NCBI GenBank assembly: GCA_038087875.1
Contig: CM075989.1
Location: forward strand, 16,370,001 to 16,434,000
From: Malacoraja senta
Taxonomy: Eukaryota
Length of the DNA stretch: 64,000 nt
Reading direction: 5' to 3'
Position 1 is the stretch's first letter; every line of letters begins with the position of its first letter. Both the position numbers and the translations under genes were made by a program. The notes under the pieces are model-generated. The model was not told where the DNA came from. It saw nothing but the letters and a program-made list of their open reading frames with translations, and searched no databases. Positions 26,921 through 40,984 of this stretch are shown here, piece by piece.

Positions 26921-27362
26921 AAGGGTGTAGTCCTGAACTCTCACACTACCTTATTGTGGCCCTTGAATCTGTCAATCTCTGCCTTAAAAATATCCATTGA
27001 CTGGCCTCCACAACTGTCTGTGGCAATGACTTCCATAGATTCACCACCCTCCTGACTGAAGAAATTCCTCCTCATCTCCTTTCTGAAGGTACTCCTTTTA
27101 TTCTGAGGCTGCATCCTCTGGTCCTAGACTCACTTGTGAACGCAGCCCCAGACCATCACACAAACCAAAGCTCCCTTCCAGTGACTCCATTTACAGCTCA
27201 CTGCCTCTGCAAGGTCAGCAGCATAATGAAGGATTAGTCACACCTGGCCGCTCCCTTAGTCTCCCATTGGGCAAAAGGTATAGAAGTGGGAAAACACACA
27301 CCTCCAGATTCAGGGACAGTTTCTTCCTAGCTGTTGCCAGGTAACGGAACCACCGTACCAAC

Positions 27363-28206
27363 CGAAGATCCTATAGCGGTGCAAGATAGACCACTCCTTC
27401 TAAATGCAATGGGCTGACGTGTAGTACGCAACGGAGCGGAACGTGGGCCTTTTTTTCATCCATTTCAGTAACCCGACCCGACCCGACTCGCAGTGTGATC
27501 AACGTTGCGGGGGAACAGTTTGTGTTAATAAATTATAATTCTGAAAATGAGGAGATTTTTCCAAATAACTTTTATTTTTACGAGGATGTTTCCATAACCG
27601 GCTTCTGTCTCTGCACTAGTTATCTTTGCTCCGCTGTGGGATCTTTGGTGCGGAGACGGAAGCAGGTTACGGCAATGGGGCCGAAAATTACCCATGTATC
27701 TGCCCATGACCGTACTACCTCTTTTTCGTCGAGTGATCTATCTTGCTCGCTATAGGGGTTGCACGTAGGTCCANNNNNNNNNNNNNNNNNNNNNNNNNNN
27801 NNNNNNNNNNNNNNNNNNNNNNNNNNNNNNNNNNNNNNNNNNNNNNNNNNNNNNNNNNNNNNNNNNNNNNNNNNNNNNNNNNNNNNNNNNNNNNNNNNNN
27901 NNNNNNNNNNNNNNNNNNNNNNNNNNNNNNNNNNNNNNNNNNNNNNNNNNNNNNNNNNNNNNNNNNNNNNNNNCCTCCACTTTTTGAATTCTGAAGTTGG
28001 CTAAATGTCTCTCACGCTTATCCCGATTTCCATAATTATTTACAGCGCAAAAATTGACCATTTCGGCGGGTTTTAACGGGCCCGCTACGCTGGAAACAAT
28101 GGTAAGTGCTTACCTGCAGTTCATCGCGTGTAATCCATTTGGCGTAGCGTAGCAACAGTACGGGTCATGGGGTCGTGACCCGACTGCCGTGAAAATAGGA
28201 TCTTTG
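27363..28206. mobile_element. Non-autonomous TIR DNA transposon (P-element-like or hAT-like) spanning the assembly gap
   Basis: Termini CGAAGATCCTAT / ATAGGATCTTTG; 8-bp TSD gtaccaac (27355-27362) and ctaccaac (28207-28214); splits a Rex/L2 tail. Confidence 0.7.
27774..27973. other. Assembly gap (200 N)
   Basis: Run of N. Confidence 1.
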
Positions 28207-28632
28207 CTACCAACAACTAGAGAGTGGTCCTGAACTATTATCTACCTCATTGGGGACCCCTTGGACTATCTCTGATCGGACTTTACTGGCTTTGTCTTGC
28301 ACTAAACGTTATTCACGTTAATCCATTTATCGTGTATCTGTACACTGTAGATGACTGGATTGTAATTATGTATTGTCTTGCCGGTGACCGGTTAGCACAT
28401 GGCAAAATATTTTCACTGAGGAGAGACACAAAATGCTGGAGTTAAACTTCAGTGTAAACCACCATCTGCAGTTCCTTCAAAAACCTTTCACTTTGTCTCG
28501 GTGAACGTGACAATAAACCAAACTAAACCAACGACATGCACAAAAATGCTGGGGTAGCTCAACATGTATTGGGTTGGGACGGATGTTGGTGCATACTAAC
28601 GTGCTCGTTAGTGCCCACTAGACAGTTTTAAG

Positions 28633-28668
28633 CAAAGATTATAGAGCAGAGCTCCTCTAGTATCTTTG
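28633..28668. mobile_element. 36-bp TIR-only element or footprint with 8-bp TSD
   Basis: gttttaag [CAAAGAT...ATCTTTG] gttttaag. Confidence 0.8.
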
Positions 28669-28780
28669 GTTTTAAGGGGGCACTAAGTATGCACAACACA
28701 TCCAAGTTGGCGATATGCAGAGTACTGCCCTGCCGACTACAAATTCGGGAGGGAGGGAGGGAGGTTCAGAAGGATTCTCC

Positions 28781-28820
28781 CAAAGATCCTAGAGCGGGTC
28801 CTATAACTAGAGGATCTTTG
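28781..28820. mobile_element. 40-bp TIR-only element or footprint with 8-bp TSD
   Basis: gattctcc [CAAAGATCCT...AGGATCTTTG] gattctcc. Confidence 0.85.
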
Positions 28821-28914
28821 GATTCTCCCGCGGGTTTTCCGCATCTTGCTACATTTATGGAGATTTGTATTAAAGGTCCGGGCTGTCGCCCAGGCAACGC
28901 ATTCCAGAGCCCGG

Positions 28915-28990
28915 CCACAGCCAATGGGGCGAGCGCATCCTTTCAAGTTCGGGCCAATGAGGAGCAGAGAAGTGATATTTGAAAGATTCG
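28915..28990 (+). promoter_or_regulatory. CCNB2: CCNB2 core promoter: two CCAAT (NF-Y) boxes plus CHR
   Basis: CCAAT at 28921-28925 and 28954-28958 (33-bp spacing), TTTGAA CHR at 28978-28983, no TATA box, within a CpG-rich region (about 28730-29700). Confidence 0.85.
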
Positions 28991-29006
28991 CGGGGAAAGG
29001 AGCGGA

Positions 29007-29106
29007 GTGAAGGAGCGCCGCGGCCAAGTGAGGGAGCGCCAGCGAGGAGTGAGGGAGCGCCGCGGCCAAGTGAGGGAGCGCCAGCCAGCCAGACAGACAG
29101 ACAGAC
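29007..29106 (+). repeat. 4 x 21-bp GC-rich tandem repeat plus (AGAC)4 in the probable CCNB2 5' UTR
   Basis: Units GTGARGGAGCGCC... start at 29007, 29028, 29049 and 29070; (AGAC)4 at 29091-29106. Confidence 0.9.
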
Positions 29107-29326: not shown

Positions 29327-29350
29327 ATGGCTTTCACCCGCCGGGCTGCG
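29327..29350 (+). CDS. CCNB2: Cyclin B2 exon 1 (coding part)
   Basis: Kozak gcccaccATGG; MAFTRRAA|gtaagt. Confidence 0.9.
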
Positions 29351-29830: not shown

Positions 29831-32023
29831 ACAACCGGTTTAGTTGTTCCAGCCACGGGGACCCGTCCTTCATCTCCAGAGCTCCTAATCTCAAACCCTT
29901 CCTGTCTCTCTACAAAATGGCGATATTCTCTGATTCACTTTTAAATAATGTGATCTGATATTGGATTATTTCAGTGACCTTGCCGTTTTATTAATCGCAA
30001 AGCTTCTTTGAATTTGGTGTCAGTTTTACAATGCTTCACGAAAAATTTGCAATATTTTGTTTGAATAACATCTCTCGTTTTAAAGAGTGTTGCAGCAAAT
30101 GGACTATTTGATTCGCAGTCCACATGTTGCCCGGCTTCCTGTTTCGTGGCTAGTGTTGCTGCTTTAAATTTGGATTGATTTTGCGTACAAAACGTTAAAA
30201 ACCTGTGTCTTAACGTGTAATTCCACATCGTTAGCGTACTAAAGCAGTTCTGGTGTTTGAAAGGAATCGAGAATTATAGAATAGGCCAGATAGCTGGAAG
30301 AAAGCGAGGGTCGGGGTGGGGCAAGGACTGGCAAGCGATAAGTGAGGAGAAGGCCAAGTGTTGGAAGGATCTGCAGATGTTGGCTTACACCAAAGTTAAA
30401 CACAAAATGCTGGAGTAACTCTGGGTCAGAAAGCATCTCTAGAGAAAAGGGACAGGTGACGTTTTGGGTCAACCTTTGTCTAAATGAGGAATTGGGTGGT
30501 GGAGAAAAAGGAGTTTGACCCAGGGTTGGGAAGTAGAGAAGACAGGGTCCAAATGGTCAACTATAATAAGGAAGATGGCAAGTGAAATGTGTGCCAGGGT
30601 CAGTTGGAGTTCCCCGTTTCCCATAATGACCCATTTGTACTTGGCTTCCTCCAGTGCCAGAATTTGAAGAATCGTGTCTTCTACTGGAGTAGCCTAGAAC
30701 CCAATGGCGTGACTATTGCTGCCTACAATTATGGGTGAAACTCCACCTACCGACTCCTCATCTGCCTAGCTCTCTTCTCACACATAGTTTTCTTTCCAGT
30801 CCCGCTGCACCTGTCACCAGGTTCATTTCCCCTCCACCTCGTAGATGTGCCCATCACCCACCCCTTCCTGCTCTGGGCCTCTCTTCCCCTATTCCTTAAT
30901 CCTGTTCTATGTTACACTCTTTATCAGATACCACCATTTGAACTGTTTTGTCATCTCTAGCCTTGGTTACTATCTTCACTCCACCCCTTCCTCTCGCTAC
31001 TTTCTACTGACTTTCTACCCTCTGCTCCACTAGCACGAAGGGGCCTGACCCAAAACACCTGTCCATTTCCCTCCACAGATGCTGCCTGGCACATCGAGTT
31101 TCTCCAGCACATTATTTTTCACTCAAGATTCCAGCATCTGTAGTCTCTCTCCCCCTGGTGTCAGTCTTGTTGGCATAACCACATAGACCTCAATCGCTTC
31201 TCAACCTATCACGGAGGTCTACGGAACAGCAATCTGCCTTTTTCTCCGCTGTTGAATGTCTGCAGGAAACTTTCCGTTCAACTTTCTTCCAATTGCCCTT
31301 GTCTCTAATTTCCATCTTCTCTCCAGGTTTCCGACTGTAGGTTATTTGATTGTTCAGCTGCAAATTGATGGCCTGGGGTCTATTTCCAGTGATTCTAGCC
31401 TGGATAATGTTTCTAATTATGTTTGGGGCAGAATTTCAAAGAACAGATCCTTGCCTCAACTTATCCAAGGCTAGCCCCATCAAGGCCTGCCCCATTTGCC
31501 TGTTTTTGCCCCACATCCCTCAAGCCTTAATGTTTTATTTATTATTGTCTGCCTCAACCTCTACCTCTGACACTTGTTCCATTTACCAAAGGGGGAGGAG
31601 TGAGTTCCCTTGAATTCCTATTAAATCTTCCCCTCACCATAAATCTAAGCCTCTTGTTCTCGATTCCTCGCCCCTGGAGGGGAAAAGAACTTTGTGCATT
31701 TGCCCTGTCTATTTCCCTCATGATTTTACAAGGTCCCCTCTCTGTCCCCTGTGCTTCAAGGAATAGTCCTAGCCTGTCCAACCTATTCCTATAGCTCAGG
31801 CCCTCAAGTCCTGGCAGCATCCTCAGGTTTTCTCAACACTTTTGTAGCTTAATGGCCTAGTTCCTGTGGCTGGGTGACCAAAACCAAACACAATGCACTA
31901 GACAACAAGTAAAGCCTCGGTAACATCCTGCAGTTTTGACTTAATTAATACACACCATCGATCTGGGTTTTGGAAGGCTGGTGAGAAATTGTCTCTATAA
32001 CACTCTACATCTTCTGTTGTTAG

Positions 32024-40858: not shown

Positions 40859-40984
<126 letters not shown>

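Follow-up and report, generated by a model that had tools for sequence, protein, structure and literature searches.

Probable Excision Scars of a P-Superfamily Transposon Upstream of a Vertebrate B-Type Cyclin Gene

The Cyclin B Locus and Its Two Inserts

The window, that is, the whole stretch of 64,000 nucleotides that was analysed, contains a B-type cyclin gene whose first coding exon was placed at 29327-29350 (plus strand), with later exons near 32020, 32490, 34700, 36770 and 37180. The product carries the Pfam domain Cyclin_N, and its best PDB matches are cyclin B1. A motif search of the promoter (28921-28983, plus strand) identified two CCAAT boxes, at 28921 and 28954, and a CHR-like TTTGAA at 28978, which we take to be cyclin B promoter elements; none of them is disrupted by the inserts described below. 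The 5′ region of the gene also holds, at 29004-29087, a 42-bp direct repeat with 95% identity between its copies, after which come short tetranucleotide repeats. Tail to tail with the cyclin gene lies a myosin-I-like gene, its SH3-domain C-terminal exons being located at 40927 and 43774 on the minus strand. The first-pass annotation of this DNA had spoken of cyclin B2; the B-type assignment is borne out by the domain and PDB matches, and the choice of B2 over B1 rests on the SH3 neighbour together with the CCNB2-MYO1E synteny, which we presume to identify the gene.

Two inserts of 36 and 40 bp, each between perfect 8-bp target site duplications of different sequence, had been reported upstream of this promoter, and both were found again in place. 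The 36-mer (28633-28668, strand unspecified) consists of two transposon end pieces between the gttttaag copies at 28625-28632 and 28669-28676, and the 40-mer (28781-28820, strand unspecified) of end pieces plus an insertion between the gattctcc copies at 28773-28780 and 28821-28828 (all four duplications on the plus strand), a site that is present as a single copy in orthologues. Their ends lie 253 and 101 bp from the first CCAAT box, in agreement with the earlier estimates of about 250 and 100 bp. The 36-mer can be read as 20 nt of one transposon end (28633-28652) and 18 nt of the other (28651-28668), which share a 2-nt GC overlap. The 40-mer had been viewed as a plain scar of two ends; the ends are there, but it comprises 17 nt of one of them and 10 nt of the other, separated by a 13-nt insertion that is a partial copy of end sequence. 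The termini of both inserts form inverted repeats, with 7 (36-mer) and 10 (40-mer) perfect terminal pairs, and the fold z-scores are -2.7 and -3.4, respectively.

A larger relative had been proposed at 27363-28206. The family assignment holds, but a single parent element is ruled out, as the interval is made of a MITE and a different repeat nested in it across an assembly gap (27774-27973). The MITE, of about 405 bp and belonging to the same transposon family, was delimited by DNA search at 27363-27756 (plus strand); it is intact except for its interrupted right end, the last 11 nt of which follow at 28196-28206 (plus strand, from the sequence). Its duplication (27355-27362 versus 28207-28214) matches at 7 of 8 positions, and the search returned 2589 candidates, the best of them 93-95% identical, about 405 bp long and flanked by 8-bp duplications. 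The nested sequence (27753-28195, strand unspecified) is an unrelated high-copy repeat, also recognised by DNA search (2392 candidates, the best 99-100% identical), and lies at the TATA in the right end of the MITE; at another locus, L067, the same repeat likewise abuts an end of the transposon family.

Comparison with other organisms revealed empty sites. The 40-mer is present in organism A and absent in organisms B, D and F, whose contigs match the promoter from 28820 onward with one copy of the duplication and just 3-4 differing positions over 170 bp. Upstream of that copy they resemble the left flank of the window (19 of 22 positions in X10, judged by eye); three of the four runs were informative, the X15 contig beginning at the site. 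Contigs of a further run, X3, did not cover the promoter. As for the 36-mer, one contig of organism B passes from 28632 straight to right-flank-like sequence, which suggests an empty site, in a flank that is repetitive. A search for paralogous empty sites of the 36-mer returned only other remnants among the best 40 of 285 DNA-search candidates.

The Parent Element and Its Transposase

Sequences encoding the P-type GTP-binding domain are numerous in the genome, with at least 150 scored matches among 312 candidates. Both CAAAGAT ends and a perfect 8-bp duplication were found around the transposase gene in 8 of 40 fetched 10-kb stretches (6/20 and 2/20 in two sets), which gives an end-to-end distance of 5.0-8.6 kb for the autonomous elements; the remaining stretches showed one end or none within 10 kb. 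A CAAAGAT-like motif within the transposase ORF was rejected as an element end. Some copies of the gene share one flank and represent duplicates of one insertion. Moreover, many autonomous copies on unplaced contigs (L339-L342, L344, L345, L351, L096, L104) have a common left flank, and thus derive from a single insertion amplified inside a larger repeated unit.

The domain content of the protein is that of a P transposase. A THAP domain (PF05485, E 3e-10) is encoded by the second exon of copy L086, with splicing deduced from the sequence, while the 36-aa first exon by itself gave no domain match. A split RNase H domain (PF21787 and PF21789) is present in 3/3 copies, together with an HTH and the GTP-binding insertion domain PF21788. 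The fly P transposase is the sole PDB match (E 9e-44), and in the alignment to this enzyme the equivalents of the catalytic residues D230, D303 and E531 are kept, as are the GTP contacts K385, V401, S409, F443, D444, N447 and D528, K400 being replaced by R (fly numbering as in the available text of PMC7776569). Among the Pfam matches of the long ORF there are P-type families only and no hAT domain. The enzyme encoded between these ends in the autonomous copies is P-type and not hAT, as its domains and PDB match indicate, and by all sequence features tested the family is a member of the P superfamily.

The first-pass annotation had proposed an affiliation to THAP9. Among the best 120 of 284 protein matches, three are named from gastropods and most are unnamed; these gastropod P transposases, at 37-42% identity, are the nearest named proteins, and none within the same best 120 is named THAP9. 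Unnamed proteins 56-81% identical to the transposase occur in other public assemblies, alongside named relatives that are gastropod, and horizontal transfer is possible. Within the genome, identity over the main exon is 96-99.8% for most copies and 84-94% for older ones (50 loci compared, partly duplicates of each other). An older subfamily, with 71-78% protein identity, bears end types of 19 and 20 nt.

Non-autonomous elements of 0.4-2 kb share the family ends. One of them, found in L316 and 595 bp long, has an end of 18 nt and another of 20 nt; joined at their shared GC, the two reproduce the 36-mer of the window exactly. In autonomous copies (L086-L105, L336-L355) the same inner left end is preceded by an 18-nt or a 20-nt outer piece, depending on the copy, as though this piece could be swapped; a possible cause is re-annealing of the excised element to partly complementary donor overhangs.

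Three remnants of its own family are found in the autonomous element itself (L086:2276-2388, L086:9410-9445): the first intron, which is rich in GC, holds two, and the third lies close to the right end. This third one mostly has no duplication, and its GCTCC repeats vary among copies. Young autonomous copies contain the two first-intron remnants, one of which is the same 36-mer, and the older copy L103 lacks both and has single target copies instead. Empty sites therefore exist at both orthologous (B, D and F for the 40-mer) and paralogous (L103) positions, as the comparison suggested in the first-pass annotation had sought.

A Genome-Wide Class of Short Remnants

The vertebrate assembly of 1.94 Gb was searched with a pattern that demands 11 nt of each end. 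As matching was exact the counts are lower bounds, and they are inflated by hitch-hiking. The whole assembly yielded 824 matches at 22-31 bp, 1165 at 32-40 bp and 233 at 41-70 bp, and reversed control patterns gave 0 in each length range. There are thus 1989 remnants over the 19 length classes from 22 to 40 bp versus 233 over the 30 classes from 41 to 70 bp, so that the predicted peak of short lengths is found as a pile-up at or below 40 bp, spanning 22-40 bp rather than being confined to 32-40 bp. Intact ends number 4192 in the genome.

Raw matches were ruled out as numbers of events, given that flanks are shared among copies of the most frequent form, a 27-mer, among most of the 22-mers sampled and among some of the 32-mers. 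The 27-mer is one event borne by a host repeat, and since the 27-mer and the 22-mer each share one flank, they have spread as passengers. After clustering by flanks, 302 short forms in the fetched loci were reduced to 128 independent sites. Taking the best copy per cluster, the 8-bp duplication is perfect at 93/128 sites and has at most one mismatch at 114/128; the 14 sites with two or more mismatches were excluded from later counts, leaving 114. At one locus, L128 (G000:C1:182060776-182060839), two identical 28-bp remnants stand in tandem with three copies of one 8-bp duplication. Both inserts of the window belong to this genome-wide class of tiny remnants built from two P-type element ends.

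Could the remnants be tiny mobile elements, micro-MITEs that make their own 8-bp duplications? The same 36-mer indeed occurs at several further, unrelated sites with different duplications, and remnants rival intact elements in number (about 2,000 versus 4192 intact ends). In addition, no filled allele was found at remnant sites: a targeted pattern for three host sites, in one orientation, gave 2 matches with unrelated flanks, and the flank comparison of all fetched loci gave only high-copy repeats in which insertions of differing end type share a position. Nevertheless, the remnants come in many lengths, from 22 to 50 bp, with end pieces joined at microhomologies or through templated inserts; the recurrent forms are those predicted from the parent ends, the inner motif of intact ends is absent, and the high-copy 27-mer and 22-mer are passengers. 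Self-mobile remnants are for these reasons considered very improbable. In two sets of loci (L316, L114 and L124; L315, L162 and L191) independent insertions with differing end types occupy the same base in separate copies of a high-copy repeat, which points to target hot spots.

Enrichment at CpG islands, another check suggested in the first-pass annotation, was also observed. Flanks of 250 bp on each side are CpG-island-like at 44/114 remnant sites versus 20/396 background windows, the latter drawn from 20 stretches spread evenly along contig C1 and not independent of one another. Outside detectable repeats the figures are 19/53 versus 13/159, a comparison that covers 109 of the 114 sites and uses a repeat library made of the fetched DNA only. 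Intact MITEs are CpG-island-like less often (3/19, or 4/35 with shorter flanks). This pattern fits insertion into open CpG-rich DNA followed by preferential loss of long inserts there. The target consensus of the remnant sites is GTNNNNAC-like.

A Sharp Limit to the Retained Ends

In intact elements, the outer piece of the end is 18, 19 or 20 nt long in 38, 16 and 39 of 93 ends, respectively, and finishes in AGC or AAC, after which come AAGAT and a conserved inner motif. The conservation score at this inner repeat is circular, because the motif was part of the search pattern. Among the 228 remnant ends at the 114 sites, 97 stop exactly at the C, 7 at the next base (+1), 2 beyond and 122 are shorter. 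Two of the searches had required 16-18 nt or more of the end, and this inflates the share at the boundary; for this reason the count was repeated on the 11-nt-anchored subset, where 21/80 ends stop at the C, 4 at +1, 1 beyond and 54 are shorter. The position of the limit follows the end type: 18-nt ends peak at 18 (59/74, none at 20), 19-nt ends at 19 (7/14) and 20-nt ends at 20 (21/39). The annotation had expected 16-17 nt to be kept per end; long retained ends are confirmed, but they reach up to 18-20 nt, and a 17-nt stagger in the strict sense of the fly P mechanism was not found. The boundary at 18-20 nt suggests, by analogy with the fly enzyme, a long staggered cleavage that would leave 3′ overhangs.

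The limit bears first on whether the remnants might be extreme internal deletions, arising by aborted gap repair or end-to-end microhomology deletion with no long stagger involved. Such a route exists, given that a few longer forms enter the inner motif, and copies shortened to 0.4-2 kb by internal loss are common. However, of the 217 microhomology joins possible within the first 60 nt of one MITE, 200 lie beyond the boundary, yet just 2 of the 228 ends extend further than +1. Lengths over 40 bp are also rare (233 in 30 length classes versus 1989 in 19), indicating a drop above 40 bp. Internal deletion is in our view most improbable as the general origin of the class.

The joints themselves provide further information. 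The overlap is 2 nt in 39/114 joins and 1 nt in 16/114, and 43/47 simple joins have the terminal C superimposed on a G native to the partner end. These figures are relevant to a cryptic-end scheme, according to which the transposase would cut both strands at the inner AAGAT, the inner element would be lost and the outer units joined. The inner motif does resemble the terminus, and lengths of 34, 36, 37 and 38 bp equal simple sums of outer units ending at G. On the other hand, shortened partners are joined almost only where G faces C (the 43/47 above), so a single-stranded end is needed, and this transposase type is known for long staggered cuts; double-strand cutting at a cryptic end thus seems hardly credible.

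A closer competitor keeps P-type excision but places the inner cut at one fixed distance of at least 20 nt, with repair trimming the overhangs to GC and thereby producing the 18/19/20 pattern. The GC at the boundary is a self-complementary microhomology, as seen in the 39/114 joins with 2-nt overlap; a fixed stagger of 17 nt is known in flies (PMC7776569); and four 18-nt ends and two 20-nt ends extend one base further. Still, no 18-nt end reaches 20, and in joins with insertions 0/17 18-nt ends pass 18, whereas fly insertion joins often retain the whole overhang (PMC2895639, Table 1). The joins with 1-nt overlap likewise end at the C, and in the four cases where an 18-nt end reaches +1 the microhomology is ambiguous. 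Fixed-distance cutting is accordingly judged unlikely, although less so than the preceding schemes. It is possible that the cut lies one base earlier or later than the C of AGC.

Returning to a cut set by sequence, a single element may have ends of different length that are both kept to the C, which argues that the inner cut follows sequence. Drawing on these lengths and on the fly analogy, we consider that the cut is probably placed in this way and not by a fixed 17-nt count.

Proposed Mechanism of Excision and Repair

We interpret the remnants, including both inserts of the window, as excision scars of a resident P-superfamily element, with a probability of roughly 0.86. The direct observations behind this reading are the ends, the 8-bp duplications, the enzyme type, the parent elements, the empty sites and the sharp limit of the retained sequence. 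Neither the transposase type, nor the lengths, nor the empty-site comparison speaks against the P-type excision footprints proposed in the first-pass annotation. On the other side weigh the 14/128 sites with two or more mismatches in the duplication, the failure of the searches described above to find a filled allele, and a further count: remnants of 18-nt ends (524 and 504 matches) seem to outnumber intact 18-nt ends, which make up about 1 in 10 among the first 100 of 4192, and repeated hopping would therefore be needed. The two inserts upstream of the cyclin B gene were most likely left when non-autonomous copies were cut out again.

In this process, non-autonomous copies would first have inserted upstream of the gene and later been excised. 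As in the fly, the transposase would make a staggered cut, at the terminus on one strand and, on the other, immediately past the C of the AGC that lies 18-20 nt inside, so that each flank would retain a long 3′ overhang of the transposon end. During end joining, the terminal C or GC of one overhang would pair with G or GC of the other, or templated bases would be added, and fill-in would complete the joint. Under this scheme the 36-mer would represent a full join of 20 and 18 nt at GC, and the 40-mer a trimmed join with a partly templated insertion. The join types observed, namely short microhomology, longer microhomology and templated insertion, match the classes of fly P excision joints (PMC2895639, Table 1). 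Having lost the inner motif, the remnants would probably be immobile except as passengers of host repeats.

How could one enzyme produce staggers of different length? The fly structure shows a looped-out transferred strand paired with the 5′ portion of the non-transferred one, an arrangement that transposition requires; the fly stagger is fixed at 17 nt (PMC7776569). In the family described here, a cut placed by sequence would free a strand beginning with AAGAT, equal to positions 3-7 of the terminus, which might pair again with the transferred strand, much as the fly structure shows, with the spacer looped out; a loop of variable length would tolerate 18-20 nt. The inner repeat offers only 5-7 possible pairs with the transferred strand, and re-pairing as the cause of the sequence-set cut is advanced tentatively, at slightly under even odds. 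The full scheme, in which a recently mobile vertebrate P transposon has its inner cut set by an internal repeat of the terminus, one enzyme thereby making both 18- and 20-nt staggers, is to our mind an even bet.

Relation to Known Transposons and Significance

The best-studied relative is the fly P element (PDB 6P5A/6PE2), with which the family shares THAP, HTH, split RNase H and GTP-binding insertion domains, the catalytic D, D and E, the GTP contacts (K400 being R here), the 8-bp duplication and remnants made of two end pieces with short microhomology or templated insertion. CpG-rich or promoter-like DNA is preferred by the fly element, and CpG-rich DNA is the part of this preference seen here. 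In contrast to the fly element, the retained ends measure 18, 19 or 20 nt instead of 17 and may be unequal within one element, the termini start with CAAAGAT, the elements are 5-8.6 kb long, and the remnants are fixed genomically at many sites, whereas fly remnants were recovered in crosses.

Among vertebrates, zebrafish Pdre/zfTHAP9 and human THAP9 likewise represent P-family transposases, for which 8-bp duplications and copies with internal deletions are also described (PMC7776569, PMC10983969). Zebrafish Pdre2 has 13-bp terminal repeats, distant subterminal repeats and one full-length gene, and in tests it was excised but failed to integrate (PMC10983969). The present family differs from Pdre2 in its many near-identical long-ORF copies and in its nearest named relatives, which are gastropod (37-42%, best 120 of 284 matches). 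The available portions of PMC7776569 and PMC10983969 give no cut position for vertebrate P enzymes. BuT5, a P-family MITE of the Drosophila repleta group, is similarly non-autonomous and has only its ends in common with autonomous P, but these ends, with 3-bp terminal and 16-17-bp subterminal repeats, are unlike those described here (PMC3698922); the word "footprint" is absent from that paper.

The hAT transposons also generate 8-bp duplications, and their target consensus resembles the GTNNNNAC type found at the remnant sites. Excision of hAT elements leaves footprints derived from the flanks, not long element ends, and, in contrast to hAT elements, the protein encoded here has no hAT domain among its Pfam matches. 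In the literature searched there is no description of the family, which Repbase, Dfam or subscription journals, all outside that search, may catalogue. The same literature, repeat databases and subscription journals again excepted, contains no P stagger other than 17 nt and no genome-wide natural P footprints.

With three natural end lengths and scars that record each cut, the question of whether the P enzyme uses a ruler or a sequence becomes directly testable. In tests the zebrafish enzyme carried out excision but no integration (PMC10983969), which makes a young vertebrate family such as this one, whose open frames are long and whose MITEs are natural substrates, a candidate for performing the full P reaction. 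The scars, which repeat annotation would probably miss because of their small size, also document how double-strand breaks in CpG-rich DNA were repaired in the germline. If the inner cut is indeed set by the inner repeat, the fixed scars would reveal, in nature, both the kind of strand re-pairing known from the fly transpososome and the way in which germline ends are joined, and among the long-ORF copies there might be a vertebrate P transposase with full competence.
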